Program-made: the position numbers and the translations under genes
Part shown: positions 1 through 48,929 of the stretch, piece by piece
Numbering within the stretch: the first letter of the stretch is position 1
Layout of the letters: each line of letters starts with the position of its first letter
The notes under the pieces: model-generated
The model's database searches: none
Told to the model about the DNA's origin: nothing
The model's input: the letters and a program-made list of their open reading frames with translations, nothing else
DNA from: Eledone cirrhosa
Lineage: Eukaryota
Direction of reading: 5' to 3'
DNA length: 64,000 nt
NCBI GenBank assembly: GCA_964016885.1
Contig: OZ024744.1
Coordinates: forward strand, 99,386,001 to 99,450,000

Positions 1-44
<44 letters not shown>

Positions 45-97
45 CACATATATATATATGTGTGTATATACACACCCACACACATACATATATATAT
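1..97. repeat. (TA)n/(CA)n compound microsatellite
   Basis: Direct reading: TA dinucleotide run with CA/TG interruptions. Confidence 0.95.
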
Positions 98-174
98 GCT
101 CTCTTGCTGCATTAAGTGTGGCCGTAACTCGAGTACGGGTATAAATTTATGGTACCCATTTACAAGTGTTAAAT

Positions 175-290
175 ATAATAATAATTGTTTCTACTTTTTG
201 GCACAAGGCCACCAATTACCCAGTGCATTACTGGTACTTTATTTTATCGAGCCCGTAAGGATGAAAGGCAAAGTCAACCTCAGCGGGATA
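175..290 (-). mobile_element. 5'-truncated tRNA-derived SINE (same family as 2320-2524)
   Basis: Near-identical to 2338-2449 (ttgtttctacttttggcacaaggcc...ctggtactttattttatcga...aaggatgaaaggcaaagt.aacctc.gcggga); breaks off just before the B box; (AAT)n tail at the left end. Confidence 0.8.
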
Positions 291-482
291 TATAATAATA
301 ATGAAATTATTGTGTACTATAACTCATCAAAGGTGCATGTATAGTACATAGAATAATGTACAAATGTGTTGTATTCAGGCAAATAACTTTGTGTCTACTC
401 TGGGATTTTTACATAACCTTATCTATTGAGTACGCTGAGATGCAACCGGTACTATCAAGGAAACCTTATCCAAGTACATTCT

Positions 483-538
483 TTCTCTGTTAGTAGGCTG
501 ACAGAAGTAGCTACCTCTGTCAGCCTACTAACAGAGAA
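483..538. other. 56-bp near-perfect spacerless palindrome
   Basis: ttctctgttagtaggctgacagaagtag|ctacctctgtcagcctactaacagagaa: 27 of 28 pairs match around the centre at 510/511; the single mismatch is A506/C515. Confidence 0.95.
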
Positions 539-662
539 CAAAGGACAAACACGGACAGAGATATGAACTCTCCTTTCAAAATATATATGTAAAAATGAAT
601 TTTTCTTCCACTTTTTATTATTATTTGTATAAATATGCAACTTTACCATATTATGCATATCC

Positions 663-700
663 GCAGTTGACAATGGATATAATGCTGAAACCGGTACCAT
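663..700 (+). ncRNA. Degenerate minimal (PLE-type) hammerhead ribozyme motif
   Basis: UUGACAA (667-673), 13-nt spacer, GAAA (687-690), palindromic ACCGGU stem III, then A. Stems I and II pair poorly, so probably inactive. Confidence 0.4.
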
Positions 701-836
701 TATTAAATGTGGAAATATCCTCTTTATAAATAAATAAATGTTTTGATATTACACTGAAAGAATCTCTTCAGCATTTTCTACTGAAAAATCTTTTTCCTTT
801 CTACTATTTGTTTTTATATATTTCAACTCGTGTGTT

Positions 837-1094
<258 letters not shown>

Positions 1095-1104
1095 AACAAG
1101 TAAG

Positions 1105-1198
1105 ACCCCGACGGCTGAGCTCAAGCCGTTTCGACGGCTAATTCTGGACTGAATGAAAATTTATTCTGGTATTTAAATAGCCGAGCTTATCAAGGGGG
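1105..1198 (-). ncRNA. Type I hammerhead ribozyme (U3-A8 core variant)
   Basis: Minus strand: CCCC-UUGAUAA (1193-1187)-G/CGGCUA...UAGCCG/C-GAAA (1132-1129)-CGGCU-ugagcuc-AGCCG-UC-GGGG. GUC triplet at 1112-1110; stems I, II and III all pair. Confidence 0.8.
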
Positions 1199-1815
1199 TA
1201 ATTCCATATATGGTCAAAGAGATAATCACCAGGATTGGTCACATCACAAGTTAGTAGTAAATCTGTGATGGCAAATTAGTGGGGGAAGGGGTAGCTAAAC
1301 CTGCCGGTAGGAGAAAAAGGGAGAGGGGATGGAGTAGACCCATTCATGCGTTGGTAGTGCCGGCTACAGCTGGGCATGAGGTCAAAGAGGATACTGGGGG
1401 AGGAAGTCGAAACGGTAAGTAGAACAATGAAGGGTAAAACTATAAAAAGTACTGAGAATGAAAAAAAAAAAATAAAAAAAAAAATAAAAAAAAATGAGCA
1501 AAGTCTGGTTACTAAGACTTAAGTCTCTCGCTATTGCTAGGCTAAAGAAATACATAAATAAATAAATAAACAAACAAATAAATGAATAAAAGAATAGATA
1601 AATAAATAAAAAAAATATAATAAATTATTAAAAAATAAATAATAATAATAATAATAAATAGACTAGGTGGGACGGAAATAAAGGGACCCTTATAAGAGGT
1701 AAAAGTGCGTGTATCGTACGGTGACGGGTCAACAAAAGGGGGGCCAAAATACTAAAGAGACTACCACGAAATAATAAAGGTTTCTATCCCAATCTCTTTG
1801 ACCATATATGGAATT

Positions 1816-1909
1816 ACCCCTTGATAAGCTCGGCTATTTAAATACCAGAATAAATTTTCATTCAGTCCAGAATTAGCCGTCGAAACGGCTTGAGCTCAGC
1901 CGTCGGAGT
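1816..1909 (+). ncRNA. Type I hammerhead ribozyme (U3-A8 core variant)
   Basis: ACCCC-UUGAUAA (1821-1827); stem II G1828:C1881 plus CGGCUA (1831-1836):UAGCCG (1874-1879); GAAA 1882-1885; stem III ACGGCU:AGCCGU; GUC 1902-1904; 3' strand of stem I is GGAGU (one mismatch). Confidence 0.78.
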
Positions 1910-2000
1910 TTTACTTGTTCCTATTACCCACTCTACTACCCTAAGTATTGAGTACTTTGGTGCGTTATGGTCCACCTGGTTCGTTACCACATTTACTTCG

Positions 2001-2001
<1 letters not shown>

Positions 2002-2057
<56 letters not shown>
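2002..2057. repeat. (TA)n microsatellite
   Basis: Direct reading. Confidence 0.97.
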
Positions 2058-2060
<3 letters not shown>

Positions 2061-2319
2061 CAAGAGTAACCAATCTTAAAGAGAGAGATGGAGATAGGAG
2101 AGGAGAGATTGGTGAATTAGTTAGAAGCCAAAGCATAAAGGCATGTGCTCAATGTGCAATATGCAGTGGAAAGCAGCTAGGTGGCTGGGTTCATGCAGAA
2201 GTTAGGTGCGCAGAGCAGGAAATATTCATTAGTTAAGCAAAACAAGACCACAAATTTCACAAGGAAGACATTATTAAAAGATTGTCAACATATTTTAGTT
2301 TGATGTAAGGAATGTAGAG

Positions 2320-2524
2320 AATAATAATAATAATATTAATAATAATTGTTTCTACTTTTGGCACAAGGCCAGCAATTACCCAGTACATTACTGGTACTTT
2401 ATTTTATCGACCCCATAAGGATGAAAGGCAAAGTTAACCTCGGCGGGATTTGAACTCAGAGTGTAAAGGGACGTAACTATGCTAGAAAGCATGGCGTCCA
2501 ACCCTCTACCGATACTGACAATTG
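2320..2524 (-). mobile_element. Near full-length tRNA-derived SINE
   Basis: Minus strand: A-box-like TGTCAGTATCGGTAG (2520-2506), B box GAGTTCAAATCCC (2457-2445), central GCCTTTCATCCTTATGGGGTCGATAAAATAAAGTACCAG domain recalled from invertebrate SINEs, (ATT)n tail. Related copies elsewhere in the window. Confidence 0.82.
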
Positions 2525-2726
2525 TTTCGCTACTCCATATAACATTCCTGGATCAAATGACTATATATCATTATTGATCTAGTTCAGTTGAAAATAATTA
2601 GCATAGTTAAAGATAGAGCGACTCATCGGAACTTCAAAGGAATATAAATTAAAATGAGGAAAGAATGTTACATAATGTAATGTTCCATATATTGGTTTTT
2701 CACTATGGTGTCCTGGGTGTATCAAT

Positions 2727-2730
<4 letters not shown>

Positions 2731-2768
<38 letters not shown>
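2731..2768. repeat. (TA)n microsatellite
   Basis: Direct reading. Confidence 0.95.
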
Positions 2769-2771
<3 letters not shown>

Positions 2772-2884
2772 TCACATATACGTACATATTTCATTAAATT
2801 AAAATAAATAAATGGCACTGAAATGAAGCTAAAAATAACGGCAGCTCATTATTAATCCTATCATACATAAACTGCCACACTAAT

Positions 2885-3472
2885 CATACCATCACTACTA
2901 CCATCATCACCTACAGCACCAACACCCTCATCACCATCACTGCCACCACCACCACTACCACCACCACCATCACCTCTAGCACCAACACCACAGTCACAAC
3001 CATCACCATCATCACCACCACCATTACCTCCATCACCATCATCGCCCCATCCCCACCCCCACCTACTAGCATCATCACAACCACGACCACCATTACCTCC
3101 ACAGCCACCATCTCCATCACCATTGCCACCACCACCACCACCACCATTACCACTGCTACCACAACCACCACCACCACCACCACCATCACCACTACCATAA
3201 CCCCCACCCTCACCACACCACCACCACCACCATCATCACAACCATTACCACTGTCACCACAATCACTGCCCTCACCTCACTACGACCATCACCACCACCA
3301 CCATCACAACCATTACCACTGCCACCACAATCACCTAACCCTAACCCTAACCCAACCATTACCACAGCCATTACAATCACCCATCTCACCACCACCATCA
3401 TAACCCCCACTCAACCTCACCACCACCACCACCATATCGCCACCACCACCACCACCACCTTCACCTCCACCA
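2885..3472 (+). repeat. Degenerate (CAC/CAT)n low-complexity tract containing (CCCTAA)3
   Basis: Direct reading; cctaaccctaaccctaaccc at 3334-3353. Confidence 0.9.
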
Positions 3473-3559
3473 GCAGGGACTATGGTCAATTGTATCAATA
3501 CTGTCCAATGTCACCTCTATCCCACCATTACTGAGGGTCAGGGACATTTGTACCAATGC

Positions 3560-3800
3560 TCTCCAATGGCCATCTCTTCCTCTCTATGACCCTCACCCTG
3601 CCCCCACCAGTGTTCTTCCCATTTATTTCCTAATATCACCACTACAACATCTCGTTGTTGGTCTTTCTCTTGATCTTCTGCCAGTGTTGTATCTTTCCAG
3701 GATGTGGGTGCAAAGATTCTGTGGCGCTGATGACATGATTGATGTATTGCCTTCCTTAAGGTCAAGGCCATCCATCTCCCTGTTCCCATCTCTATCAAGG
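3560..3800 (-). mobile_element. Decayed RTE-type LINE ORF2 C-terminal fragment
   Basis: Frameshifted translation RQYINHVISA/QNLCTHILERYNTGRRSRERPTTRCCSGDIRK*MGRTL resembles the RTE C-terminal motif (K..YFGHV.R...L...ILEG...G.R.RGRP..RW.DDI). Confidence 0.55.
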
Positions 3801-3887
3801 ACCGATCTGTTAGTTTTGTGGTCCATCCAGCCGATGTGCGGTGTCCACCTGTAACATGGAATAACCAATACTTAACTAGTACTTCAC

Positions 3888-4200
3888 TGGGATGCCACAT
3901 GCAGTGAGTGACACATTCTCCAGCAGGAACCTGGTGCAGTCTGTGACTAACTCAGGCTCTGCTGCACGTCAGGCTGAGGAGGGTAACCTGTCCAAGTATC
4001 AGTTGCTCTCCGACAGATTTGCAGTCGAGCCTGTGCCAATGGGAGACTTCTGATGTCCTTGGCCCTACTGCCGCCTCCCTACTCACCGCCGTCGGCACAG
4101 AATTGGCTACCCGCTGGTGTGAGCCTCACAAGCTGGAATGGCTCTTCCAATGTGTACCCTCACCGTCTTCTGGGGAAACACCTTTTCTATTCTGTCCACC
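3888..4200 (+). mobile_element. Decayed CRE-clade non-LTR retrotransposon, restriction-like endonuclease (RLE) C-terminus
   Basis: Frameshifted translation WDATCS/DTFSSRNLVQSVTNSGSAARQAEEGNLSKYQLLSDRFAVEPVPM/ETSDVLGPTAASLLTAVGTEL...LEWLFQC/..VFWGNTFSIL follows the recalled CRE RLE pattern WD.TC.DT...AA..AE..K..KY..L...F.P.A.ET.G..GP....RGN..SI. Confidence 0.72.
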
Positions 4201-4349
4201 GGAGACTCGGGGGTGGCCAACGTGTGGGCCCCTATTTATTCACAGTAGTGAGAGATGGGGAGAACAGGAGAGACAGAGGCAATGACTGTGGGAGTTTGGT
4301 TCCTTTGTGCTTGGTCCTGGTGTATATAAATATATGTATATAAAAGAGA

Positions 4350-4497
4350 ATGAGTACACAGTTTATTGATTCCTGAAATGAAGAAAGGACGGTAAATTCA
4401 GTCTCAGTGGGATTTGAACTCAAAAGATTGAAACAAAGTCTTAACTAAATGCTACAAAACATAATGTATGATTCTCTACTGATACTATCAATTCACT
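4350..4497 (-). mobile_element. Old diverged copy of the minus-strand SINE family
   Basis: gggatttgaactc B box at ~4409-4421 and ctctactgatactatcaatt A-box region resemble 2445-2524. Confidence 0.6.
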
Positions 4498-4507
4498 ACA
4501 GCCTTTA

Positions 4508-5033
4508 GTGAAGGCACGTGGCTTAGTGGTTAGAGAGTCGGATTCACAATTGTAAGGTTGTGAGTTCAATTCTCAGATCGGATGGTGTGTTGTGTCTTTA
4601 AGCAAGACACTTTATTTCATGTTGCTCCTCCTGCCAGGAGTTGCAATGTGATGACACACGACCGTGACCTCTGGCATCACACAGTAATACAGAGTACCCG
4701 ACCTCCCAAGGGGACAAGCCGAAGCTGAAGCATATAGACAATATGCCCCCACACCCTCCCACCGCAAGGTGGTCGTGGAGGTGCCACGGCAAAAAAGCAC
4801 CCAGCCCACACTGTAAAGTGGACATGTAGGCGCCACGGAAAAGCACCCAGCACTCACAGTAAATGAGGTTGGTGTTAGGAAGGGCATCCAGCTGTAGAAT
4901 TCAAGCCGAAATCAGTTCCAGTATGAGCAAGACAAGGTCAGCCGACCAGACACTGCCCACAACAGGACAACCCGCCTAACCCATGCTAGAATGGAAGAAC
5001 GGACGTAAAACGGTGATGATGATGATGATGATG
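4508..5033 (+). mobile_element. tRNA-derived SINE (possibly composite) with RTE-like 3' tail and (GAT)n end
   Basis: A box TGGCTTAGTGG (4519-4529), B box GAGTTCAATTCT (4562-4573), TTGTGTCTTTAAGCAAGACACTT core, GGTTGGTGTTAGGAAGGGCATCCAGCTGTAGAA, 3' CCCATGCTAGAATGGAAGAACGGACGTAAAAC then (GAT)n; ~40-bp internal direct repeat within 4782-4868. Confidence 0.75.
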
Positions 5034-5174
5034 AGATAGTATCAGCAATGGAAAAACCAATAGGAACATTGTTTCCTTGGTCTGATTTGACGAGGTCCAC
5101 CCCAATCGGCAAGCAGAGTTCTGGGATCTTTAACATTCCGCTAATAATATCAAAACCACATACATCCAAGACAG

Positions 5175-5560
5175 GAGCTTCTATGTGGTCTGCTAGAAAG
5201 AGCAGCTAAACCTCTCTCAAATTATATCTTACTGTATTAACTTTTAGCATCCTATAATGATTTAACAGAAAATATCTAAAAACATGTTTGTTAATTCAAA
5301 TGTTTATAGTATCTTTACTAGTGGACAGATTGTTGTAAAAATTTACAGTATTAGTGAAAAGGCTTTAATATTTAATGTAAAGCAGTCATAGTACTGTTTT
5401 GTACTTTTCAAGAATGTCTTCCTTATAATGTGGTTTCATGTGGTTCAGGACGTTAAAGGTTAAATAAGGATACATTGGATAAAAATATATAGACAGGATG
5501 GTCATGGCTGGAATATCTTTGATCATAGGTCTGCCTGATTAGGGCCCATATGGGGGTTAA
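5175..5560 (+). mobile_element. Interspersed repeat fragment split by the MITE
   Basis: Removing the MITE and one TTAA rejoins ...cttactgtaTTAAataaggatacattggat...ggatggtcatggctggaat..., which I recall as a common octopus repeat; not verifiable from this window. Confidence 0.4.
5237..5463. mobile_element. piggyBac-like MITE with TTAA ends
   Basis: Left TTAActtttagcatcct versus reverse complement of right end TTAAcctttaacgtcct (14/17 identical); TTAA at 5237-5240 and 5460-5463; AT-rich and non-coding. Confidence 0.68.
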
Positions 5561-5665
5561 ATATAAGAAAAATATGAACCAAACATTAAATATTTATAAT
5601 AACAACATCAATATTAATACATTTCTGATATCAATATCTGACAAGAATCAATAAAAATAATAATG

Positions 5666-6815
<1,150 letters not shown>

Positions 6816-6849
6816 TACCGACACCATCGTGTTGGTAAAGTCTGTGACG

Positions 6850-7395
6850 ATGCTGATGATAATGATGGTGGTGTGGTGGGTTAAGGCGTAATGTTGGTGG
6901 TGGTGGTGGGTGGTGGGCTAATGTTGATGGTGGTTGTAGTGGGTTAAGGCGTAATGTTGGTGGTGGTGGTGGTGGGTTGTGGGGTAATGTTGGTGGTGAT
7001 GGTGGTGGTGGTGGGTTGTGGGGTAATGTTGGTGGTGGTGGTGGTGGTGGGTCGGTGGTGGGGTAATGTTGGTGGCGGTGGTGGTGGTGTGTGGTGGGAC
7101 AATGTTGTTGTTGTTGGTGGTGGTGGTGGGTGGTGGTGGTGGTGGTGGTGGTAGTGGTTTGTGGGGTAATGTTGGTGGTGGTGGGTGGTGGGGGTGGGGG
7201 AGGGGTGGGGGTTGGGGTGGCATGGGGAGGTATTGTTGGTGGTGGTTGTGATGGTGGTGGTTGTGATGGTGGTGGTGGGTGGTGTGGTTATGGTGGTGGT
7301 GGTGGTGGTGGTGTTGGTGGTGGTGGGTTGTGGGGTAATGTTGTTGGTGGTGGTCGTGGTGGTGGTGGTGGTGGTGGTGGTGGGGTAATGTTGGC
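6850..7395 (+). repeat. (TGG/TTG)n tract with recurring GGGGTAATGTTGG motif
   Basis: Direct reading; opposite polarity to the preceding CCA/CAA tract. Confidence 0.92.
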
Positions 7396-7454
7396 GGCGT
7401 TGATTTCTTGCTTAATAACAACAGTAACAACAATATTTCTATTTTATTGGACTA

Positions 7455-7958
7455 GGGGTGAGGTGTGAGGAGTGGGAGGTGAGGGTGAGGGTGAGGGGTG
7501 AGGGGTGAGTGGTGAGGATGGGGGATTAGAGGTGAGGGGTGAAAGGTGAGAGGTGATGGGTGAGGGGTGAGGGATGAGAGGTGAGGGGTGAGAGGTGAGG
7601 GGTGAGGGGTGAGGGATGAGAGGTGCAGGGTGAGATGTGAGAGGTGAGGGGTGAGGGGCTGGGTGAGGAGTGAGAGGTGAGGGGTGCGGGGAGAGGGGTG
7701 AGGGATGAGACGTGCAGGGTGATGGGTGTGAGAGAGGGGAGAGGTGAAGGATGAGGGGTGAGGGGGTGAGGGGTGAAGGGTGAGCGGTGTGTGGTGAGGA
7801 GTGAGAGGTGAGAGGTGAGGGGTGAAATGTGAGGGGTGAGGGGTGAGGTGTGAGGGGTGATGGGTGAGAGGTGAGGGATGAGAGGTGAGAGGTGAGGGAT
7901 GAGAGATGAGAGGTGAGGGGTGAGGGGTGAGAGGTGAGGGGTGAGAGGGGGGAGGGGA
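7455..7958 (+). repeat. G-rich 7-bp (GGGGTGA/GAGGTGA)n minisatellite
   Basis: Direct reading; many G3-G4 runs with short spacers. Confidence 0.9.
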
Positions 7959-8211
7959 TATATTTCCTTAGATTGTCCAATGCTGAGCTAACACTTTGGA
8001 TCAACCATGGATTGTTCCCATAGCATATAATTATTGCTAGGACCTCACATAATCCACCTTCAATCCATTTTTAGAGAAAGGCAAAATGTAAGTGGTTACC
8101 CTGGGACTTGGTTTAAGAGGAATTCAATTATTATTTATAGCAGGAGTCAACTATTATTACAGTCATCTGCATTGGGACAACTACATTTCACACACAAACA
8201 AATATATATAT

Positions 8212-11200
8212 AGTGTTGTGCAAGAGAGAAGACTGTGTTGGTATAGACATGTGATGTACATGGATGATGGTTGTTGGATGAAGAAATGCCAGGAAATCCC
8301 AGTGGAAGGAAGCCACAGAAGAGGTAGACCAAGGAAGACCCGGGTGGATGTGGTGAGAGCTGATCTCAAATTGCTGAGACTCACAGGAGATGACGAAGGA
8401 ATGCAAGGAGTGTGCAAAAGAGAAGACTCTGTTGGTGGTATAGACATGTGAAGAAATGCCAGGAAATGTCAGTGGATGGAAGCTGTGGTAGAGGTAGACC
8501 AAGGAAGACCTGGGTAGAGGAAATACCAGTGGAAGGAAGCTGTAGTAGAGGTAGACCAAGGAAGACCTGGGTAGAGGAAATGCCAGTGGAAGGAAGCTGT
8601 AGTAGAGGTAGACCAAGGAAGACCTGGACAGAGGAAATGCCAGTGGAAGGAAGCCGCAGTAGAGGTAGACCAAGGAAGACCTGGACAGAGGAAGTGTCAG
8701 TGGAAGGAAGCTGTAGTAGAGGTAGACCAAGGAAGACCTGGACAAAGGAAATGCCAGTGGAAGGAAGCCGCAGTAGAGGTAGACCAAGGAAGACCTGGGT
8801 AGAGGAAATGTCAGTGGAAGGAAGCTGTAGTAGAGGTAGACCAAGGAAGACCTGGGTAGAGGAAATGTCAGTGGAAGGAAGCTGTAGTAGAGGTAGACCA
8901 AGGAAGACCTGGGCAGAGGAAATGTCAGTGGAAGGAAGCTGTAGTAGAGGTAGACCAAGGAAGACCTGGGTAGAGGAAATACCAGTGGAAGGAAGCTGTA
9001 GTAGAGGTAAACCAAGGAAGACCTAGGCAGAGGAAATGCCAGTGGAAGGAAGCTGTAGTAGAGGTAGACCAAGGAAGACCTAGGCAGAGGAAATGCCAGT
9101 GGAAGGAAGCCGCAGTAGAGGTAGACCAAGGAAGACCTGGGTAGAGGAAATGCCAGTGGAAGGAAGCTGTAGTAGAGGTAGACCAAGGAAGACCTAGGCA
9201 GAGGAAATGCCAGTGGAAGGAAGCTGTAGTAGAGGTAGACCAAGGAAGACCTAGGCAGAGGAAATGCCAGTGGAAGGAAGCTGTAGTAGAGGTAGACCAA
9301 GGAAGACCTGGGTAGAGGAAATACCAGTGGAAGGAAGCAGTAGAGGTAGACCAAGGAAGACCTGGGTAGAGGAAATACCAGTGGAAGGAAGCAGTAGAGG
9401 TAGACCAAGGAAGACCTGGGTAGAGGAAATGTCAGTGGAAGGAAGCTGTAGTAGAGGTAGACCAAGGAAGACCTGGACAGAGGAAATGTCAGTGGAAGGA
9501 AGCTGCAGTAGAGGTAGACCAAGGAAGACCTGGGCAGAGGAAATGTCAGTGGAAGGAAGCTGTAGTAGAGGTAGACCAAGGAAGACCTGGGCAGAGGAAA
9601 TGTCAGTGGAAGGAAGCTGCAGTAGAGGTAGACCAAGGAAGACCTGGGCAGAGGAAATGTCAGTGGAAGGAAGCTGTAGTAGAGGTAGACCAAGGAAGAT
9701 CTGGGTAGAGGAAATGTCAGTGGTAGGAAGCTGTAGTAGAGGTAGACCAAGGAAGACCTGGGCAGAGGAAATGTCAGTGGAAGGAAGCCGCAGTAGAGGT
9801 AGACCAAGGAAGACCTGGGCAGAGGAAATGTCAGTGGAAGGAAGCTGCAGTAGAGGTAGACCAAGGAAGACCTGGGCAGAGGAAATGTCAGTGGAAGGAA
9901 GCTGTAGTAGAGGTAGACCAAGGAAGACCTGGGCAGAGAAAATGTCAGTGGAAGGAAGCCGCAGTAGAGGTAGACCAAGGAAGACCTGGGCAGAGGAAAT
10001 GTCAGTGGAAGGAAGCCGCAGTAGAGGTAGACCAAGGAAGACCTGGGCAGAGGAAATGTCAGTGGAAGGAAGCCGCAGTAGAGGTAGACCAAGGAGAAAC
10101 TGGGCAGAGGAAATGTCAGTGGAAGGAAGCTGTAGTAGAGGTAGACCAAGGAATACCTGGGTAGAGGAAATGTCAGTGGAAGGAAGCTGTAGTAGAGGTA
10201 GACCAAGGCAGACCTGGGCAGAGGAAATGCCAGTGGAAGGAAGCTGTAGTAGAGGTAGACCAAGGAAGACCTGGACAGAGGAAATGCCAGTGGAAGGAAG
10301 CTGTAGTAGAGGTAGACCAACGAAGACCTGGGTAGAGGAAATGTCAGTGGAAGGAAGCCACAGTGAGGTAGACCAAGGAAGACCTGGGCAGAGGAAATGT
10401 CAGTGGAAGGAAGCTGTAGTAGAGGTAGACCAAGGAAGACCTGGGTAGAGGAAATACCAGTGGAAGGAAGCTGTAGTAGAGGTAGACCAAGGAAGACCTA
10501 GGCAGAGGAAATGCCAGTGGAAGGAAGCTGTAGTAGAGGTAGACCAAGGAAGACCTGGGTAGAGGAAATGTCAGTGGAAGGAAGCTGTAGTAGAGGTAGA
10601 CCAAGGAAGACCTGGGTAGAGGAAATACCAGTGGAAGGAAGCAGTAGAGGTAGACCAAGGAAGACCTGGGTAGAGGAAATGTCAGTGGAAGGAAGCTGTA
10701 GTAGAGGTAGACCAAGGAAGAACTGGGCAGAGGAAATACCAGTGGAAGGAAGCTGTAGTAGAGGTAGACCAAGGAAGACCTGGGTAGAGGAAATGCCAGT
10801 AGAAGGAAGCCACAGTAGAGGTAGACCAAGGAAGACCTGGGCAGAGGAAATGTCAGTGGAAGGAAGCTGTAGTAGAGGTAGACCAAGGAAGACCTGGGTA
10901 GAGGAAATGTCAGTGGAAGGAAGCTGTAGTAGAGGTAGACCAAGGAAGACCTGGGTAGAGGAAATACCAGTGGAAGGAAGCAGTAGAGGTAGACCAAGGA
11001 AGACCTGGGTAGAGGAAATGTCAGTGGAAGGAAGCTGCAGTAGAGGTAGACCAAGGAAGACCTGGGCAGAGGAAATGCCAGTGGAAGGAAGCTGCAGTAG
11101 AGGTAGACCAAGGAAGACCTGGGCAGAGGAAATGTCAGTGGAAGGAAGCTGTAGTAGAGGTAGACCAAGGAAGACCTGGGCAGAGGAAATGTCAGTGGAA

Positions 11201-14200
11201 GGAAGCTGTAGGAGAGGTAGACCAAGGAAGACCTGGGTAGAGGAAATACCAGTGGAAGGAAGCTGCAGTAGAGGTAGACCAAGGAAGGCCTGGGTAGAGG
11301 AAATACCAGTGGAAGGAAGCTGTAGTAGAGGTAGACCAAGGAAGACCTGGGTAGAGGAAATGTCAGTGGAAGGAAGCTGTAGTAGAGGTATACCAAGGAA
11401 GACCTGGGCAGAGGAAATGTCAGTGGAAGGAAGCTGTAGGAGAGGTAGACCAAGGAAGACCTGGGTAGAGGAAATACCAGTGGAAAGAAGCTGTAGTAGA
11501 GGTAGACCAAGGATGACCTGGGCAGAGGAAATGTCAGTGGAAGGAAGCTGTAGTAGAGGTATACCAAGGAAGACTTGGGTAGAGGAAATGTCAGTGGAAG
11601 GAAGCTGTGGTAGAGGTAGAAAAAGGAAGACCTGGGCAGAGGAAATACCAGTGGAAGGAAGCTGCAGTAAGGTAGACCAAGGAAGACCTGGGTAGAGGAA
11701 ATATCACTGGAAGGAAGCTGTAGTAGAGGTAGACCAAGGAAGACTTGGGCAGAGGAAATGTCAGTGGAAGGAAGCTGTAGTAGAGGTAGACCAAGGAAGA
11801 CCTGGGTAGAGGAAATGTCAGTGGAAGGAAGCTGCAGTAGAGGTAGACCAAGGAAGACCTGGGCAGAGGAAATGTCAGTGGAAGGAAGCTGTAGTAGAGG
11901 TAGACCAAGGAAGACCTGGGTAGAGGAAATGTCAGTGGAAGGAAGCCGCAGTAGAGGTAGACCAAGGAAGACCTGGGTAGAGGAAATGTCAGTGGAAGGA
12001 AGCTGTAGTAGAGGTAGACCAAGGAAGACCTGGGTAGAGGAAATGTCAGTGGAAGGAAGCTGTAGTAGAGGTAGACCAAGGAAGACCTGGGCAGAGGAAA
12101 TGTCAGTGGAAGGAAGCTGTAGTAGAGGTAGACCAAGGAAGACCTGGGTAGAGGAAATACCAGTGGAAGGAAGCTGTAGTAGAGGTAAACCAAGGAAGAC
12201 CTAGGCAGAGGAAATGCCAGTGGAAGGAAGCTGTAGTAGAGGTAGACCAAGGAAGACCTAGGCAGAGGAAATGCCAGTGGAAGGAAGCCGCAGTAGAGGT
12301 AGACCAAGGAAGACCTGGGTAGAGGAAATGCCAGTGGAAGGAAGCTGTAGTAGAGGTAGACCAAGGAAGACCTAGGCAGAGGAAATGCCAGTGGAAGGAA
12401 GCTGTAGTAGAGGTAGACCAAGGAAGACCTAGGCAGAGGAAATGCCAGTGGAAGGAAGCTGTAGTAGAGGTAGACCAAGGAAGACCTGGGTAGAGGAAAT
12501 ACCAGTGGAAGGAAGCAGTAGAGGTAGACCAAGGAAGACCTGGGTAGAGGAAATACCAGTGGAAGGAAGCAGTAGAGGTAGACCAAGGAAGACCTGGGTA
12601 GAGGAAATGTCAGTGGAAGGAAGCTGTAGTAGAGGTAGACCAAGGAAGACCTGGACAGAGGAAATGTCAGTGGAAGGAAGCTGCAGTAGAGGTAGACCAA
12701 GGAAGACCTGGGCAGAGGAAATGTCAGTGGAAGGAAGCTGTAGTAGAGGTAGACCAAGGAAGACCTGGGCAGAGGAAATGTCAGTGGAAGGAAGCTGCAG
12801 TAGAGGTAGACCAAGGAAGACCTGGGCAGAGGAAATGTCAGTGGAAGGAAGCTGTAGTAGAGGTAGACCAAGGAAGATCTGGGTAGAGGAAATGTCAGTG
12901 GTAGGAAGCTGTAGTAGAGGTAGACCAAGGAAGACCTGGGCAGAGGAAATGTCAGTGGAAGGAAGCCGCAGTAGAGGTAGACCAAGGAAGACCTGGGCAG
13001 AGGAAATGTCAGTGGAAGGAAGCTGCAGTAGAGGTAGACCAAGGAAGACCTGGGCAGAGGAAATGTCAGTGGAAGGAAGCTGTAGTAGAGGTAGACCAAG
13101 GAAGACCTGGGCAGAGAAAATGTCAGTGGAAGGAAGCCGCAGTAGAGGTAGACCAAGGAAGACCTGGGCAGAGGAAATGTCAGTGGAAGGAAGCCGCAGT
13201 AGAGGTAGACCAAGGAAGACCTGGGCAGAGGAAATGTCAGTGGAAGGAAGCCGCAGTAGAGGTAGACCAAGGAGAAACTGGGCAGAGGAAATGTCAGTGG
13301 AAGGAAGCTGTAGTAGAGGTAGACCAAGGAATACCTGGGTAGAGGAAATGTCAGTGGAAGGAAGCTGTAGTAGAGGTAGACCAAGGCAGACCTGGGCAGA
13401 GGAAATGCCAGTGGATGGAAGCTGTAGTAGAGGTAGACCAAGGAAGACCTGGACAGAGGAAATGCCAGTGGAAGGAAGCTGTAGTAGAGGTAGACCAACG
13501 AAGACCTGGGTAGAGGAAATGTCAGTGGAAGGAAGCCACAGTGAGGTAGACCAAGGAAGACCTGGGCAGAGGAAATGTCAGTGGAAGGAAGCTGTAGTAG
13601 AGGTAGACCAAGGAAGACCTGGGTAGAGGAAATACCAGTGGAAGGAAGCTGTAGTAGAGGTAGACCAAGGAAGACCTAGGCAGAGGAAATGCCAGTGGAA
13701 GGAAGCTGTAGTAGAGGTAGACCAAGGAAGACCTGGGTAGAGGAAATGTCAGTGGAAGGAAGCTGTAGTAGAGGTAGACCAAGGAAGACCTGGGTAGAGG
13801 AAATACCAGTGGAAGGAAGCAGTAGAGGTAGACCAAGGAAGACCTGGGTAGAGGAAATGTCAGTGGAAGGAAGCTGTAGTAGAGGTAGACCAAGGAAGAC
13901 CTGGGCAGAGGAAATACCAGTGGAAGGAAGCTGTAGTAGAGGTAGACCAAGGAAGACCTGGGTAGAGGAAATGCCAGTGGAAGGAAGCCACAGTAGAGGT
14001 AGACCAAGGAAGACCTGGGCAGAGGAAATGTCAGTGGAAGGAAGCTGTAGTAGAGGTAGACCAAGGAAGACCTGGGTAGAGGAAATGTCAGTGCAAGGAA
14101 GCTGTAGTAGAGGTAGACCAAGGAAGACCTGGGTAGAGGAAATACCAGTGGAAGGAAGCAGTAGAGGTAGACCAAGGAAGACCTGGGTAGAGGAAATGTC

Positions 14201-17200
14201 AGTGGAAGGAAGCTGCAGTAGAGGTAGACCAAGGAAGACCTGGGCAGAGGAAATGCCAGTGGAAGGAAGCTGCAGTAGAGGTAGACCAAGGAAGACCTGG
14301 GCAGAGGAAATGTCAGTGGAAGGAAGCTGTAGTAGAGGTAGACCAAGGAAGACCTGGGCAGAGGAAATGTCAGTGGAAGGAAGCTGTAGTAGAGGTATAC
14401 CAAGGAAGACCTGGGCAGAGGAAATGTCAGTGGAAGGAAGCTGTAGGAGAGGTAGACCAAGGAAGACCTGGGTAGAGGAAATACCAGTGGAAGGAAGCTG
14501 CAGTAGAGGTAGACCAAGGAAGGCCTGGGTAGAGGAAATACCAGTGGAAGGAAGCTGTAGTAGAGGTAGACCAAGGAAGACCTGGGTAGAGGAAATGTCA
14601 GTGGAAGGAAGCTGTAGTAGAGGTATACCAAGGAAGACCTGGGCAGAGGAAATGTCAGTGGAAGGAAGCTGTAGGAGAGGTAGACCAAGGAAGACCTGGG
14701 TAGAGGAAATACCAGTGGAAGGAAGCTGCAGTAGAGGTAGACCAAGGAAGGCCTGGGTAGAGGAAATACCAGTGGAAGGAAGCTGTAGTAGAGGTAGACC
14801 AAGGAAGACCTGGACAGAGGAAATGCCAGTGGAAGGAAGCTGTAGTAGAGGTAGACCAAGGAAGACCTGGGTAGAGGAAATACCAGTGGAAAGAAGCTGT
14901 AGTAGAGGTAGACCAAGGATGACCTGGGCAGAGGAAATGTCAGTGGAAGGAAGCTGTAGTAGAGGTAGACCAAGGAAGACCTGGGTAGAGGAAATGTCAG
15001 TGCAAGGAAGCTGTAGTAGAGGTAGACCAAGGAAGACCTGGGTAGAGGAAATACCAGTGGAAGGAAGCAGTAGAGGTAGACCAAGGAAGACCTGGGTAGA
15101 GGAAATGTCAGTGGAAGGAAGCTGCAGTAGAGGTAGACCAAGGAAGACCTGGGCAGAGGAAATGCCAGTGGAAGGAAGCTGCAGTAGAGGTAGACCAAGG
15201 AAGACCTGGGCAGAGGAAATGTCAGTGGAAGGAAGCTGTAGTAGAGGTAGACCAAGGAAGACCTGGGCAGAGGAAATGTCAGTGGAAGGAAGCTGTAGTA
15301 GAGGTATACCAAGGAAGACCTGGGCAGAGGAAATGTCAGTGGAAGGAAGCTGTAGGAGAGGTAGACCAAGGAAGACCTGGGTAGAGGAAATACCAGTGGA
15401 AGGAAGCTGCAGTAGAGGTAGACCAAGGAAGGCCTGGGTAGAGGAAATACCAGTGGAAGGAAGCTGTAGTAGAGGTAGACCAAGGAAGACCTGGGTAGAG
15501 GAAATGTCAGTGGAAGGAAGCTGTAGTAGAGGTATACCAAGGAAGACCTGGGCAGAGGAAATGTCAGTGGAAGGAAGCTGTAGGAGAGGTAGACCAAGGA
15601 AGACCTGGGTAGAGGAAATACCAGTGGAAGGAAGCTGCAGTAGAGGTAGACCAAGGAAGGCCTGGGTAGAGGAAATACCAGTGGAAGGAAGCTGTAGTAG
15701 AGGTAGACCAAGGAAGACCTGGACAGAGGAAATGCCAGTGGAAGGAAGCTGTAGTAGAGGTAGACCAAGGAAGACCTGGGTAGAGGAAATACCAGTGGAA
15801 AGAAGCTGTAGTAGAGGTAGACCAAGGATGACCTGGGCAGAGGAAATGTCAGTGGAAGGAAGCTGTAGTAGAGGTATACCAAGGAAGACTTGGGTAGAGG
15901 AAATGTCAGTGGAAGGAAGCTGTGGTAGAGGTAGAAAAAGGAAGACCTGGGCAGAGGAAATACCAGTGGAAGGAAGCTGCAGTAAGGTAGACCAAGGAAG
16001 ACCTGGGTAGAGGAAATGTCACTGGAAGGAAGCTGTAGTAGAGGTAGACCAAGGAAGACTTGGGCAGAGGAAATGTCAGTGGAAGGAAGCTGTAGTAGAG
16101 GTAGACCAAGGAAGACCTGGGTAGAGGAAATGTCAGTGGAAGGAAGCTGCAGTAGAGGTAGACCAAGGAAGACCTGGGCAGAGGAAATGTCAGTGGAAGG
16201 AAGCTGTAGTAGAGGTAGACCAAGGAAGACCTGGGTAGAGGAAATGTCAGTGGAAGGAAGCCGCAGTAGAGGTAGACCAAGGAAGACCTGGGTAGAGGAA
16301 ATATCACTGGAAGGAAGCTGTAGTAGAGGTAGACCAAGGAAGACCTGGGCAGAGGAAATACCAGTGGAAGGAAGCCGCAGTAGAGGTAGACTAAGAAAGA
16401 CCTGGGTAGAGGAAATGTCAGTGGAAGGAAGCTGCAGTAGATTTAGACCAAGGAAGACCTAGGCAGAGGAAATGTCAGTGGAAGGGAGCCACAGTAGAGG
16501 TAGATCAACGAGGACCTGGTCAGAGGAAATGTCAGTGGAAGGAAGCTGCAGTAGAGATAGACCAAGGATGACCTGGGCAGAGGAAATGTCAGTGGAAGGA
16601 AGCTGTAGTAGAGGTAGACCAACGAAGACTTGGGTAGAGAAAATGTCAGTGGAAGGAAGCTGTAATAGAGGTAGACAAAGGAAGACCTGGGCAGAGGAAA
16701 TGTCAGTGGAAGGAAGCTGTAGTAGAGATAGACCAAGGAAGACCTGGGTAGAGAAAATGTCAGTGGAAGGAAGTTGTAATAGAGGTAGACCAAGGAAGAC
16801 CTGGGCAGAGGAAATGTCAGTGGAAGGAAGCTGTAGTAGAGGTAGACCAAGGAAGACCTGGGTAGAGGAAATGTCAGTGGAAGGAAGCTGTAGTAGAGGT
16901 AGACCAAGGAAGACTTGGGTAGAGGAAATGTCAGTGGAAGGAAGCTGTAGTAGAGATAGACCAAGGATGACTTGGGCAGAGGAAATGTCAGTGGAAGGAA
17001 GCCGCAGTAGAGGTAGACCAAGGAAGACCTGGGTAGAGGAAATGTCAGTGGAAGGAAGCTGCAGTAGAGGTAGACCAAGGAGACCTGGGCAGAGGAAATG
17101 TCAGTGGAAGGAAGCTGTAGTAGAGGTGGACCAAGGAGACCTGGGCAGAGGAAATGTCAGTGGTAGGAAGCTGTAGTAGAGGTAGACCAAGGTAGACCTG

Positions 17201-17745
17201 GGTAGAGGAAATGTCAGTGGTAGGAAGCTGTAGTAGAGGTGGACCAAGGAGACCTGGGCAGAGGAAATGTCAGTGGTAGGAAGCTGTAGTAGAGGTGGAC
17301 CAAGGAGACCTGGGCAGAGGAAATGTCAGTGGAAGGAAGCTGTAGTAGAGGTAGACCAAGGAAGACCTGGGCAGAGGAAATGCCAGTGGAAGGAAGCTGT
17401 AGTAGTGGTAGACCAAGGAAGACCTGGGCAGAGGTGGTGAGAGCTGATCATAAATCATTGAGACTCACAGGAGATGATGAAGGAACGTAGTGAGTGTGCA
17501 AGAGAGAAGACTGTATTGGTATGGACATATGATGTACATGGACGATGATCACTGGGTGAAGAAGTGGCAGGAAATTCTAGTGGAAGGAAGCTGCAATAGA
17601 GGAAGACCAAGGAGGACCTTCGTGGAGGTGGTGAGACTCACAGAGGACATGATGAAGGAATGTGGTGAGTGGAGTACTGAGCCAATCTGTTGATGACCCA
17701 TTCAGTCCTTGCTAGCAGGGAAAGCGGGTAATAAGGATGATGGTT
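8212..17745 (+). mobile_element. Tandem triplet of an RTE LINE 3'-end fragment; the middle copy carries the 57-bp expansion
   Basis: Copy 1 ~8212-8407 (VQERRLCWYRHVMYMDDGCWMKKCQEIPVEGSHRRGRPRKTRVDVVRADLK), copy 2 ~8408-17491, copy 3 ~17492-17690 (VQERRLYWYGHMMYMDDDHWVKKWQEILVEGSCNRGRPRRTFVEVV), then a 3'UTR-like tail ending in GATGATG. Confidence 0.85.
8461..17434 (+). repeat. 57-bp minisatellite, ~157 copies, LINE-derived, with higher-order duplications
   Basis: Unit aggaaatgtcagtggaaggaagctgtagtagaggtagaccaaggaagacctgggtag (period 8461 to 8518); occasional 54-, 55- and 56-bp variants. Confidence 0.98.
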
Positions 17746-17935
17746 GTGGTGGTAGCAGTAATGATGGATGATGATGAAGGTTAGGGACTTCTGATCGTTA
17801 ACGTAGTCTTGGAGGGGTGGGGTAGGATGTAGGGAAAGACAGGCAAACATTTACTTTGGAGACTATTTGATTCCAAATCTCAATTAAAAAAGAATACACC
17901 AAAATATGGCTGATGGAAACACAAGAGATGGGTGA

Positions 17936-18620
17936 GTCAGGGGTGTCTGAGGGGTAGTAATACAGGACTAGGACTAGGACTAGACAGTATTGAGGAGCAG
18001 AGGCCACAGTAGTAGATGTAGAAGTGGTAGAGAGAGGAGACACAGCATATCTGTGGGTAAGAGATTGTAGTGTGTCAGGGGTGTCTGAGGGGTAGTAATA
18101 CAGGACTAGGACTAGGACTAGACAGTAGGAGGAGCAGAGGCCACAGTAGTAGATGTAGAAGAGATAGAGAGAGGAGTCACAGCATATCTGTGGGTAGGAG
18201 ATTGTAGTGTGTCAGGGGTGTCTGAGGGGTAGTAATACAGGACTAGGACTAGGACTAGACAGTAGGAGGAGCAGAGGCCACAGTAGTAGGTGTAGAAGTG
18301 GTAGAGAGAGGAGACACAGCATATCTGTGGGTAAGAGATTGTAGTGTGTCAGGGGTGTCTGAGGGGTAGTAATACAGGACAAGGACTAGGACTAGACAGT
18401 AGGAGGAGCAGAGGCCACAGTAGTAGATGTAGAAGAGATAGAGAGAGGAGACACAGCATATCTGTGGGTAAGAGATTGTAGTGTGTCAGGGGTGTCTGAG
18501 GGGTAGTAATACAGGACAAGGACTAGGACTAGACAGTAGGAGGAGCAGAGGCCACAGTAGTAGATGTAGAAGAGATAGAGAGAGGAGGCACAGCATATCT
18601 GTGGGTAAGAGATTGTAGTG
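17936..18620 (+). repeat. 137-bp tandem repeat, 5 copies
   Basis: Units start at 17936, 18074, 18211, 18348 and 18485; each contains (GGACTA)3 or a one-base variant. Confidence 0.97.
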
Positions 18621-18849
18621 CATTATGTCAATCAATCAATCATTCAATAAGAAAACCTTTCTTTTGGATGAAGCCTTGATGTCTGTTTATGTAGCTTCAT
18701 CTCTATCTTTGACAAGATGTAATTCCACTCTTGTTATTTTGTTTCGAGGAAAAGCTGACAAACGTGATGTTCCATGTTCGGGGGTAACAACAGAAGAAAT
18801 GAATACTTCTGTTTGTCTGGATTAAAGTTTTATTATTTCATCAAGAGTG

Positions 18850-18910
18850 GTCATTTGTCAGTATCGGTAGAGCATCAGACAACATGCTTTGTGTCATATA
18901 GTTATGTTTT
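18850..18910 (+). mobile_element. SINE 5' head (A-box part only) abutting the 85-bp satellite
   Basis: ttgtcagtatcggtagag (18855-18872) is the exact reverse complement of 2504-2521; similarity continues (catgcttt...tagtta.gt) up to the first satellite unit; no B box. Confidence 0.7.
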
Positions 18911-21900
18911 GTTAATGTGGTTTCATGTGGTACAGGATGTTAAGAGTTAATGTGATACTGTCATAGTACTGTTTTGTACTTTTCAAGAATGTCTTGTTAA
19001 TGTGGTTTCATGTGGTACAGGATGTTAACAGTTAATGTGATACAGTCATAGTACTGTTTTGTACTTTTCAACAATGTCTTGTTAATGTGGTTTCATGTGG
19101 TACAGGATGTTAAGAGTTAATGTGGTACAGTCATAGTACTGTTTTGTACTTTTCAACAGTGTCTTGTTAATGTGATTTCATGTGGTACAGGATGTTAACA
19201 GTTAATGTGATACAGTCATAGTACTGTTTTGTACTTTTCAACAATGTCTTGTTAATGTGGTTTCATGTGGTACAGGATGTTAAGAGTTAATGTGATACAG
19301 TCATAGTAGTGTTTTGTACTTTTCTAGTATGTCTTGTTAATGTGGTTTCATGTGGTACAAGATGTTAACAGTTAATGTGATACAGTTATAGTACTGTTTT
19401 GTAGTTTTCAACAGTGTCTTGTTAATGTGGTTTCATGTGGTACAGGATGTTAAGAGTTAATGTGATACAGTCATGGTACTGTTTTGTACTTTTCAACAGT
19501 GTCTTGTTAATGTGGTTTCATGTGGTACAGGATGTTAAGAGTTAATGTGATACAGTCATAATACTGTTTTGTAGTTTTCAACAATATCTTGTTAATGTGG
19601 TTTCATGTGGTACAGGATGTTAAGAGTTAATGTGATACAGTCATAGTACTGTTTTGTACTTTTCAACAATGTCTTGTTATTGTGATTTCATGTGGTACAG
19701 GATGTTAAGAGTTAATGTGATACAGTCATAGTAGTGTTTTGTACTTTTCTAGTATGTCTTGTTAATGTGGTTTCATGTGGTACAGTATGGTAAGAGTTAA
19801 TGTGATACAGTCATAGTACTGTTTTGTACTCATCAACAATGTCTTGTGAATGTGGTTTCATGTGGTACAGGATGTTAAGAGTTAATGTGATACAGTCATA
19901 ATACTGTTTTGTACTTTTCCACAATGTCTTGTTAATCTGGTTTCATGTCGTACAGGATGTTAAGAGTTAATGTGATACAGTCATAGTACTGTCTTGTACT
20001 TTTCAAGAATGTCTTGCTAATGTGGTTTCATGTGGTACAGGATGTTAACAGCTAATGTGATACAGTCATAGTACTGTGTTGTACTTTTCAACAGTGTCTT
20101 GTTAATGTGGTTTCATGTGGTACAGGATGTTAAGAGTTAATGTGATACAGTCATAGTAATGTTTTGTACTTTTCAACAATGTCTTGTTAATGTGGTTTCA
20201 TGTGGTACAGGATGTTAACAGCTAATGTGATACAGTCATAGTACTGTTTTGTACTTTTCAACAATGTCTTTTTAATGTGGTTTCATGTGGTACAGGATGT
20301 TAACAGTTAATGTGATACAGTCATAGTACTGTTTTGTACTTTTCAACAATGTCTTGTTATTGTGGTTTCATGTGGTACAGGATGTTAACAGTTAATGTGA
20401 TACAGTCATAGTACTGTTTTGTACTTTTCAACAATGTCTTGTTAATGTGGTTTCATGTGGTACAGGATGCTAAGAGTTAATGTGATACAGTCATAGTAGT
20501 GTTTTGTACTTTTCAACAATGTCTTGTTAATGTGGTTTAATGTGGTACAGGATGTTAAGAGTTAATGTGATACAGTCATAGTACTGTTTTGTACTTTTCA
20601 ACAATGTCTTGTTAATGTGGTTTCATGTGGTACAGGATGCTAAGAGTTAATGTGATACAGTCATAGTAGTGTTTTGTACTTTTCAACAATGTCTTGTTAA
20701 TGTGGTTTAATGTGGTACAGGATGTTAAGAGTTAATGTGACACAGTCATAGTACTGTTTTGTACTTTTCAACAGTGTCTTGTTAATGTGGTTTCATGTGG
20801 TACAGGATGTTAATAGGTAATGTGATACAGTCATAGTACTGTTTTGTACTTTTCAACAGTGTCTTGTTATTGTGGTTTCATGTGGTACTGGATGTTAACA
20901 GTTAATGTGATACAGTCATAGTACTGTTTTGTACTTTTCAACAATGTCTTGTTATTGTGGTTTCATGTGGTACAGGATGTTAAGAGTTAATGTGATACAG
21001 TCATAGTACTGTTTTGTAATTTTCAACAATGTCTTGTTAATTTGGTTTCATGTGGTACAGGATGTTATGAGTTAATGTGATACAGTCATAGTACTGTTTT
21101 GTACTTTTCAAGAATGTCTTGCTAATGTGGTTTCATGTGGTACAGGATGTTAACAGTTAATGTGATACAGTCATAGTACTGTTTTGTACTTTTCAACAAT
21201 GTCTTGTTAATGTGGTTTCATGTGATACAGGATGTTAACAGTTAATGTGATACAGTCATAGTACTGTTTTGTACTTTTCAACAATGTCTTGTTAATGTGG
21301 TTTCATGTGGTACAGGATGTTAAGTGTTAATGTGATACAGTCATAGTACTGTTTTGTACTTTTCAAGAATGTCTTGCTAATGTGGTTTCATGTGGTACAG
21401 GATGTTAAGAGTTAATGTGATACAGTGATAATACTGTTTTGTAGTTTTCAACAATATCTTGTTAATGTGGTTTCATGTGGTACAGGATGTTAAGAGTTAA
21501 TGTGATACAGTCATAGTACTGTTTTGTACTTTTCAACAATGTCTTGTTAATGTGGTTTCATGTGGTACAGGATGTTAAGAATAAATGTGATACAGTCATA
21601 GTACTGTTTTGTACTTTTCAAGAACGTCTTGTTAATGTGGTTTCATGTGGTACAGGATGTTAAGAGTTAATGTGATACAGTCATAATACTGTTTTGTACT
21701 TTTCAACAATGTCTTGTTAATGTGGTTTCATGTGGTACAGGATGCTAACAGTTAATGTGATATAGTCATAGTAGTGTTTTGTACTTTTCAAGTATGTCTT
21801 GTTAATGTGGTTATATGTGGTACAGGATGTTAACAGTTAATGTGATACAGTCATAGTACTGTTTCATACTTTTCAACAATGTCTTGTTAACGTGGTTTCA

Positions 21901-47460: not shown

Positions 47461-47809
47461 TATTCCAGGTGGAGGTGTGAAGTGGGAGAACAAGTGGTTT
47501 CAACAAGAGACACAGAAACATTTGTTTCCTCACATAGTCACATAGATATGACACAGCTGAAGTTTTTTTTTTACCCCCAGATGTTATATATTTATCATGT
47601 CACTAAGATATTATAGAATGTCTGAAGAGCAAAAATCTTTGCTTCATGATAATTTGGACAGCATTATTTGACATAAATTATCAAAAGATAACAATTCATA
47701 AAACTCATAGTTAAAAACACAAATGCATAATTTATCAAATAAATTTCTTTCTGGTTGTCAAATCATGTTTTCCTTTCAATTCACTTATACTACATCCTTC
47801 ATGCACATT

Positions 47810-48926
47810 AACATAACAAATGCATTGGAGCATACTTAACTTCTTTCTAGTCTCTGCAGTTGAGACTCATGTTTCACTGTCAGATAGCATTGTAGTTCAC
47901 AGACAGGCATCATACAGTCTACTCTTCACTCTGAGCAAGATGCCCTTTGTTGTAAGCTGAGGGATCAACTCTTAACCTTTTCCAGCCTGTTCTGATCCTG
48001 GCTATCACACTTTCAGTACATCCTCTCCCACTATTAATTTGTTCACATTGGTAACAAAAGCTGTCAACAACTTCTAAGGAGTCTCCCTGTCAACTGAAGG
48101 AATCTATTTCATGTGTGTTGTTAGTGCCTACACCTCTCCTGTGTATCTATCACATACAATGTCTATCTTTCCTGTTAATCTGCCTTGAATCCCACTACAT
48201 CTCTTGTGAGCCCATACTTTACACTGTGTGCACCTTACGGAATTTCTGCCCAACTTTTTCTGAAATATCGACCAAGGTCACTTCCCTGTTGGTATCACCC
48301 TCCAGTCCTCTTATTAGAACTTTTATCTTTACTAAGTTTACTTTTTGGCCATTCAACTCCGGGTTATTCTTCCATGCTTGAAATGTTGCTTCTAACTCTC
48401 CTACAGATTCAGCTATGAGGACTAGGTCATCAGCATATAGGGGCCCTCATGGGGTTCCTGTTTTAAACACCTCAGGGATGGCCTGAAGTATAATGATAAA
48501 TAGAAGTAGACTGAGGACTGAGCCCTGGTGGACTCCCACCTGTACTTCAAATTCATTACTGCTGACCTCACCCTGTTAGATGCTCCTCTAAACATGGTCT
48601 GTATGACCCTCACAAGCCATTTGTCTACACCTAGCTTCCTAAGTGCCCACCAGGCCTTCTCCAGATCTACAAATGCTAGATACAGAGGCTTAGTCTTAGC
48701 TAAATACCTGTCCTGTAGTTGTCTCACCAGAGAGAAGGCATCAGTAATGCCTCTCCCTGGCATAAATCTAAACTGTGCATCTCATCTAATTTGATTCTTT
48801 CCCTAATTAGTTGTGCTATAAACCCTTTCAGTAACTTTCATGACCTGGTCCATCAACTTGATACCCCTGTAGTTACTTCTCCCTAGTGTATTATCTTTGC
48901 CCTTGTACTAACTTACAGTGATACTG

Positions 48927-48928: not shown

Positions 48929-48929
<1 letters not shown>

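Follow-up and report, generated by a model that had tools for sequence, protein, structure and literature searches.

A 57-bp minisatellite of 158 units inside the middle of three tandem copies of a LINE C-terminal coding segment

How single-copy DNA turns into a long tandem array is a partly open question, and most long arrays have lost the sequence from which they started. Here we describe a minisatellite of Eledone cirrhosa that keeps two unexpanded homologues of its unit. The window analyzed is a stretch of 64,000 nucleotides (assembly GCA_964016885.1, contig OZ024744.1, positions 99,386,001 to 99,450,000, forward strand), and all coordinates below are positions within it. The array is built on a 57-bp unit. 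The C-terminal coding segment of a long interspersed nuclear element (LINE) is present here in three tandem copies of ~194 bp, and the array sits inside the middle one. We consider it probable that its history was stepwise and neutral, with a 57-bp piece of a decayed LINE 3' fragment repeated 158 times, likely through microhomology-guided slippage and then unequal exchange.

To delimit the array we used Tandem Repeats Finder (TRF), which reported a period of 57, 158.1 copies and 93% matches on the plus strand at 8461-17434, with a score (15218) that places the array far above chance. Splitting the array on an anchor gave 158 units at 8461-17431, followed by a 3-bp AGG overhang, i.e., n units plus one terminal microhomology arm. 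Most units measure 57 bp (n=141), and the others 54 bp (n=9) or 56 bp (n=8); they comprise 57 distinct variants with a mean identity of 95.7% to the majority unit, a mean pairwise identity of 93.3% (6.7% divergence), and a GC content of ~0.50. The unit equals 19 codons of the old LINE frame. At its upstream edge the array reads TGCC-AGG-AAATG and at its downstream edge GCAG-AGG-TGGTG, with LINE sequence again from 17435; the window is free of any N, and both array ends join cleanly to one LINE copy. A preliminary description of this DNA had reported an AGG-bounded segment expanded ~157 times. Its boundaries and the expansion itself hold, while its count is one short of the 158 obtained by both TRF and the anchor split.

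The array lies wholly within the middle copy, and the majority unit differs from its single homologues at 9 of 57 sites in copy 1 and 11 of 57 in copy 3, that is, an identity of 48/57 and 46/57. No further copy of the 57-bp unit was found elsewhere in the 64-kb window. Unit positions 24-26 vary between CGC, TGC, CAC, and TGT, with CAC in copy 1 and TGC in copy 3. This variation suggests that a CpG once present at this site has decayed, in which case the most frequent unit may differ from the ancestral one.

The three homologous copies start at 8217, 8411, and 17495 and show a pairwise identity of 83-87% when copy 2 is collapsed to one unit, in agreement with the tandem copies and the unexpanded siblings on both sides that had been proposed. 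LINE homology starts at about 8200-8215. Copy 1 (8217-8410, plus strand) is an unexpanded 194-bp segment whose 57-bp homologue lies at 8291-8347, and it matches residues 230-293 of the database protein P0006 (53% identity, E 9e-13). The left part of copy 2 (8411-8460, plus strand) has a duplication of 3 bp near 8432. It has also lost 27 bp in frame between TGA motifs, leaving a single TGA at 8449-8451; this deletion, though not the duplication, had been recognized in the preliminary description. Its right part (17435-17494, plus strand), where the LINE resumes, carries a 2-bp frameshift common to copy 1: both copies read LTGDDEG, and the shared frameshift follows the LT codons. Copy 3 (17495-17671, plus strand) is unexpanded, with its 57-bp homologue at 17569-17625, and is without this frameshift. 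Its translation, LTEDMMKECGEW, shares the frame of relatives, for example P0165 (LTEEMTGDRAEW); residues 132-203 of P0165 match copy 3 at 56% identity. A 21-bp deletion of its own, TGAGA-bounded at 17632-17636, keeps the family frame afterwards.

Beyond copy 3 lies the element end (17672-17778, plus strand), where the terminal motif survives in decayed form at 17705-17731 and is followed by a GAT-rich tail at 17736-17778; the tail thus extends past 17745, where the feature had been taken to end. One frame here reads VLASRESG-stop. In relatives the open reading frame (ORF) runs into the terminal motif and then into ATG/GAT repeats: a THASMENGR-like motif ends 10 of 269 database relatives, one of which reads on into poly-Met (ATG repeats). 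The spacing from copy 3 to the terminal motif equals that of relatives within 2 bases, and the element end matches locally a second such tail at 4980-5035. Since the motif and the tail are present only after copy 3, the locus represents one LINE end with an internal 194-bp triplication. Three copies had rightly been noted, yet it is a sub-terminal segment of a single end, and not the LINE end itself, that was triplicated. Three independent LINE ends are rejected by the single tail. A chimeric origin of the middle copy is rejected as well: left of the unit, no column groups copies 2 and 3 against copy 1.

To identify the element, we built a profile from four segments of the window; searching 1.84 billion proteins with it returned 1926 at E<=0.001 (best 1.6e-21). 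P0105, P0153, and P0155 carry RVT_1 and a PHD-like finger, the best PDB matches of P0105 are R2 and LINE-1 proteins, and the distance of the matched motif from the C-terminus is 37-56 residues (5th-95th percentile across 66 proteins with a length of at least 290 aa). The reverse transcriptases available for comparison in PDB were R2, LINE-1, and group II intron only. Judged by homology, the triplicated segment is the end of the ORF of a retrotransposon that lacks long terminal repeats (non-LTR), because its relatives bear a reverse transcriptase (RT), match R2 and LINE-1 structures, and hold the motif near the C-terminus; the LINE assignment made earlier is thereby upheld. A word-index search of longer proteins, with copy 1 as the query, gave 0 of 12 candidates, and Pfam found nothing on the short translations of copies 1 and 3. 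Source names, seen for a few relatives, include two Hydractinia proteins, one Octopus vulgaris protein, and one protein (P0216) labelled as coming from a bacterial metagenome-assembled genome; the last, as a relative of an animal LINE, probably reflects host contamination.

The element likely belongs to the RTE clade, by its ORF end and tail. It has a very short 3' untranslated region (UTR) ending in simple repeats rather than poly(A), the RTE pattern. A PHD-like finger directly follows the RT in relatives and is also found at window positions 48131-48277. We know of no zinc knuckle at the ORF C-terminus in the RTE clade, and a Pfam scan of 8 relatives gave no zinc domain beyond the PHD-like finger. 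RTE elements are described as having an RT-bearing ORF whose end is followed by a very short 3' UTR and a tail of simple repeats (PMC2887409, PMC6007223), and a single ORF with an apurinic/apyrimidinic (AP) endonuclease and RT (PMC2887409). The window LINE remnant holds no endonuclease part, and in P0105 (880 aa, the longest relative, with RVT_1 present) Pfam called no endonuclease even at E<=10. Tandem duplications within the LINE C-terminal region also occur in P0039, P0136, P0004, P0079, and P0119, with periods of 22, 17, 54, 62, and 282 residues. These are 5 of 150 profile hits, and as their periods are other than the one seen here, this LINE region was duplicated independently elsewhere.

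Comparison of units revealed that the array grew in blocks. Block A (units 7-62; 56 units, 3178 bp; 8803-11980, plus strand) aligns in full to block B (units 63-138; 11981-16295, plus strand), with 5 mismatches in 3178 bp (0.16%). At an offset of 56, units 7-48 and 63-104 are identical in 38 of 42 units, while the best diagonal score in 200 unit-order shuffles was 4; the block structure too is thus far above chance. Unit comparison and alignment show block B to be a duplicate of block A plus 20 units, 16 of which come from an exact 16-unit (909-bp) tandem duplication inside it (14023-15840, plus strand; 16/16 units identical, exact match across 956 bp); 4 do not. This 909-bp duplication is either the youngest event or a mis-assembly. 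Without block B the array would count 82 units. Half of it derives from one recent 56-unit block duplication and smaller ones, which bears out the block amplification suggested earlier. The divergences are nested: 13-17% between copies, 6.7% on average between units, 0.16% between blocks A and B, and 0 in the 909-bp block. Polar growth is unsupported. Singleton variants do cluster in units 139-158, as expected because these units lie outside the duplicated blocks.

Microhomology accompanies four junctions, with 3 bp at the unit, 3 bp at the 27-bp deletion, 5 bp at the 21-bp deletion, and 2 bp at the 194-bp duplication. For random breakpoints in copy 1, the four jointly give P(sum>=13) = 0.001, in line with the microhomology-mediated start that had been proposed from the AGG motif.

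These data fit the following stepwise history. A LINE 3' piece, shown by homology, came to occupy about 8210-17778. At a TG junction, a sub-terminal segment of 194 bp then underwent duplication; relatives suggest that in the ancestor this junction was probably AGTG. On the simplest reading of the indels, one of the two copies then lost 2 bp and was duplicated again into copies 1 and 2, because these share a frameshift absent from copy 3; the frameshift is observed, and the order would follow from it. In the middle copy, 57 bp between two AGG motifs were duplicated at the junction seen today, presumably through slippage or microhomology-mediated repair. Homologous unequal exchange, which needs no new microhomology, then probably extended the array to about 82 units. 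Finally, the array would have reached 158 units through the duplication of 56 units, a net change of 4, and the duplication of 16; the blocks are visible in the array, and unequal exchange is again the presumed mechanism. Our preferred reading of the array is that of a variable number tandem repeat (VNTR) under neutral drift, in a region accumulating tandem arrays and probably without function itself.

Several observations weigh against this history. The 3-bp AGG arm is matched by ~8% of random junctions, and by 9-12% at a spacing of 57. The two junctions named in the preliminary description give p = 0.026 only, and the set of four was chosen after inspection, with 1-3-bp indels omitted. The arm is shorter than the 5-10 bp flanking direct repeats of the Haber-Louis model of 1998 (cited in PMC3389668), so that the 57-bp unit works like that model yet outside its arm length, and it also falls below the 4-25 bp range of candidate sites in PMC13167724. 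Copy 1 carries ATG rather than AGG at the downstream arm. The order of triplication depends on one indel; substitution patterns lean toward the same order without being decisive, as copy 3 alone differs in 18 columns (5 at indel edges), copy 1 in 9, and copy 2 in 8. No target-site duplication was found, the longest direct match being 6 bp and not at the ends, although old copies can lose such duplications and the 5' end here may be a rearrangement break. A search for DNA-level relatives in bacterial genome contigs returned 0 matches to a 22-base pattern and confirmed 0 of 18 candidate stretches, and therefore the polarity of changes rests on proteins.

We weighed this history against four alternatives. 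The array may be real while its youngest blocks are assembly artefacts, with two alleles of a shorter VNTR joined or the 909-bp stretch entered twice. The exactness of the 909-bp duplicate would suit such an error, the 0.16% between blocks A and B is a distance that two alleles could show, and a neighboring 85-bp array likewise has 32 identical units in a run at an offset of 40. We nevertheless hold this to be improbable: block B differs structurally from block A by 20 extra units, 4 of them unexplained by the 16-unit copy, and the clean joins and gap-free sequence noted above also argue against it. In the worst case ~82 units would be left, and the origin of the array would be unaffected. Similarly doubtful is an origin of the triplication, or of the first 57-bp dimer, in the act of retrotransposition, through template jumps of the RT, or its presence already in the source element. 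It has been argued that initiation can be tied to retrotransposition (PMC3389668), and the five profile hits with internal tandem repeats in the same C-terminal region have repeat scores of 25-99, compared with 5 at most in shuffled controls. These hits, however, have other breakpoints and periods, and the profile search favors proteins with several matches, which inflates their count among the 150. The frameshift that copies 1 and 2 share and copy 3 is without also opposes this origin, since it implies that at least the second duplication postdates decay in the genome.

Less probable still is an origin of the 57-mer in a multi-locus satellite family, from which it would have entered the LINE copy by insertion or conversion, as could be imagined from satellites derived from short interspersed nuclear elements (SINEs), which are found at many loci and have parent sequence at one end or at both (PMC10702118). 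Against this, the register of the array agrees exactly with the two halves of a single LINE copy. Moreover, no protein with many 19-residue units appeared among the best 150 of the profile search, and a search with the antisense frame gave 1 marginal hit among 8000 candidates scored, which is not an array of the 57-bp unit; both protein negatives count for little here, since the frames of the window itself were likewise missing from what the libraries returned. Finally, we see hardly any chance that the array is functional, be it as a repeat protein retained in frame or as an element that forms a structure. The length of its unit is divisible by 3, and frames without a stop extend to 397 aa (plus strand) and 978 aa (minus strand), but such lengths arise because a stop-free unit is repeated. 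The 45 distinct substitutions comprise 36 non-synonymous, 7 synonymous, and 2 stop changes (possible changes 125:34:12), and in-frame stops occur in 11 units and frameshifts in 8. With no synonymous excess, protein-coding constraint is rejected. Hairpin-driven instability is rejected by folding z-scores of the unit dimer of -0.75 and -0.18, no better than shuffles, quadruplex-driven instability by the lack of any G3 quadruplex motif, and a known RNA family by the lack of any Rfam match in 1-20000.

Set beside known systems, the array is an unusually legible example of a known repeat origin, as both minisatellites derived from transposable elements (TEs) and microhomology-initiated repeats are well documented; the locus reveals neither a new mechanism nor any sign of function. 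In human, 7,276 TE-derived cases make up 23% of minisatellites, 601 of them from L1 (Ahmed and Liang 2012, PMC3389668), and initiation is explained there for only 6% of TE-derived repeats. Like those cases, the present array has a unit of 20-100 bp that comes from inside a retroelement and expanded locally. By the definition used there (unit of at least 20 bp, GC of at least 40%, at least 2 units, and a unit at least 70% similar to the TE or overlapping it over a full period), the values here are 57 bp, ~0.50, 158 units, and 48/57 and 46/57; next to a filter of at least 95% unit similarity stand 95.7% to the majority unit, 93% by TRF, and 93.3% pairwise. Whereas the Alu-derived arrays of that study average 2.3-2.4 units, 158 units span 9 kb here. 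Our case further differs from them in its LINE coding source, its non-human genome, and its nesting in a prior triplication with two unexpanded homologues.

In squamates, SINE-derived satellites can reach 1000 units per array (Vassetzky et al. 2023, PMC10702118) and, as here, parent-element sequence continues at one or both array ends, although the parent is a SINE there and a LINE ORF here. Microhomology-mediated tandem duplication is described across life and as mostly neutral (Wei et al. 2026, PMC13167724). The present array shares with these duplications the format of n units plus one terminal arm and the mostly neutral evolution, and differs in its arm of 3 bp instead of 4-25 bp and in its growth to 158 units by later block duplication. 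Satellites derived from LINE ORF2 have been tabulated, including PROsat, Pvc 20, and chicken HinfI/CR1 (PMC9659126). They too are tandem repeats from LINE coding sequence, often near the 3' end, but are families with LINE-1 or CR1 parents, in contrast to a short-unit array that is still inside its parent copy. LINEs of the RTE clade have many 5'-truncated copies, and RTE-BovB is reported to be greatly expanded in cephalopods (PMC2887409, PMC6007223, PMC10294476, PMC9115989, PMC3391268); the microsatellites that RTE elements are known to seed come from the tail, whereas the array here comes from the coding region. A literature search, made at the level of listings and with subscription journals mostly uncovered, found no published account of this array or of any minisatellite from RTE coding sequence. 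With two unexpanded homologues, both junction arms, and nested duplications of falling divergence, the locus makes a good worked example, and the array is likely a hypervariable marker.

The surroundings are repetitive as well, with 88% of the window in TRF arrays. On the minus strand, 47768-48930 holds a decayed RT and PHD-finger fragment of the same kind of LINE. This fragment stops at P0006 residue 226 and the plus-strand one starts at ~230-235, 4-9 residues later. The two resemble the same relatives to a comparable degree: identities are mostly 49-62% and fall to 37% in one frameshifted stretch. It is conceivable, if doubtful, that they are one LINE insertion split by an inversion of about 8210-47768, and that the inverted stretch is an amplification hotspot. 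This geometry was noticed after the fact, and neither a target-site duplication nor a repeat spanning the supposed breakpoints was found for it. Of the 39.5 kb between these breakpoints, ~38 kb consist of three arrays (57, 137, and 85 bp) and 1356 bases lie outside arrays. A single-copy relative can be traced for at least two of the three, and block duplications of 3.2-3.4 kb are present in the 57-bp array as well as in the 85-bp one. Should the inversion have happened, the three arrays would have grown from roughly 1.6 kb, and the last 200 bases of this LINE family might be a recurrent minisatellite seed across genomes, given the 5 of 150 hits; each step from single copy to kilobase array could then be dated against orthologues.

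The other arrays and elements of the window are as follows. Directly after the LINE tail, five 137-bp units occupy 17932-18620, apparently with a GTG overhang at the ends. The 85-bp array comprises 336 units over 28.5 kb at 18904-47450; its 40-unit (3400-bp) offset with 32 identical units indicates a block duplication, and a monomeric relative lies at 5365-5463 (88-89% identity), apparently with a TTAA junction. A second 3' end of a related element lies at 4500-5035 on the plus strand, with a longer 3' region, a terminal motif, and a GAT tail, and within it 4651-4701 matches P0006 residues 294-310 (E 0.046). The stretch before this element resembles, by eye, a tRNA-derived SINE head. A TA-repeat-flanked element at 1092-2002 resembles a miniature inverted-repeat transposable element (MITE), with 132-bp inverted repeats of 97.7% identity (1090-1223 and 1792-1922), and a short copy related to it at 48977-49108 interrupts the 5' end of the RT fragment. 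From 49250 to 64000 runs a 14.7-kb ACC-rich array with periods of 33 bp and 45 bp, which continues past the window end.

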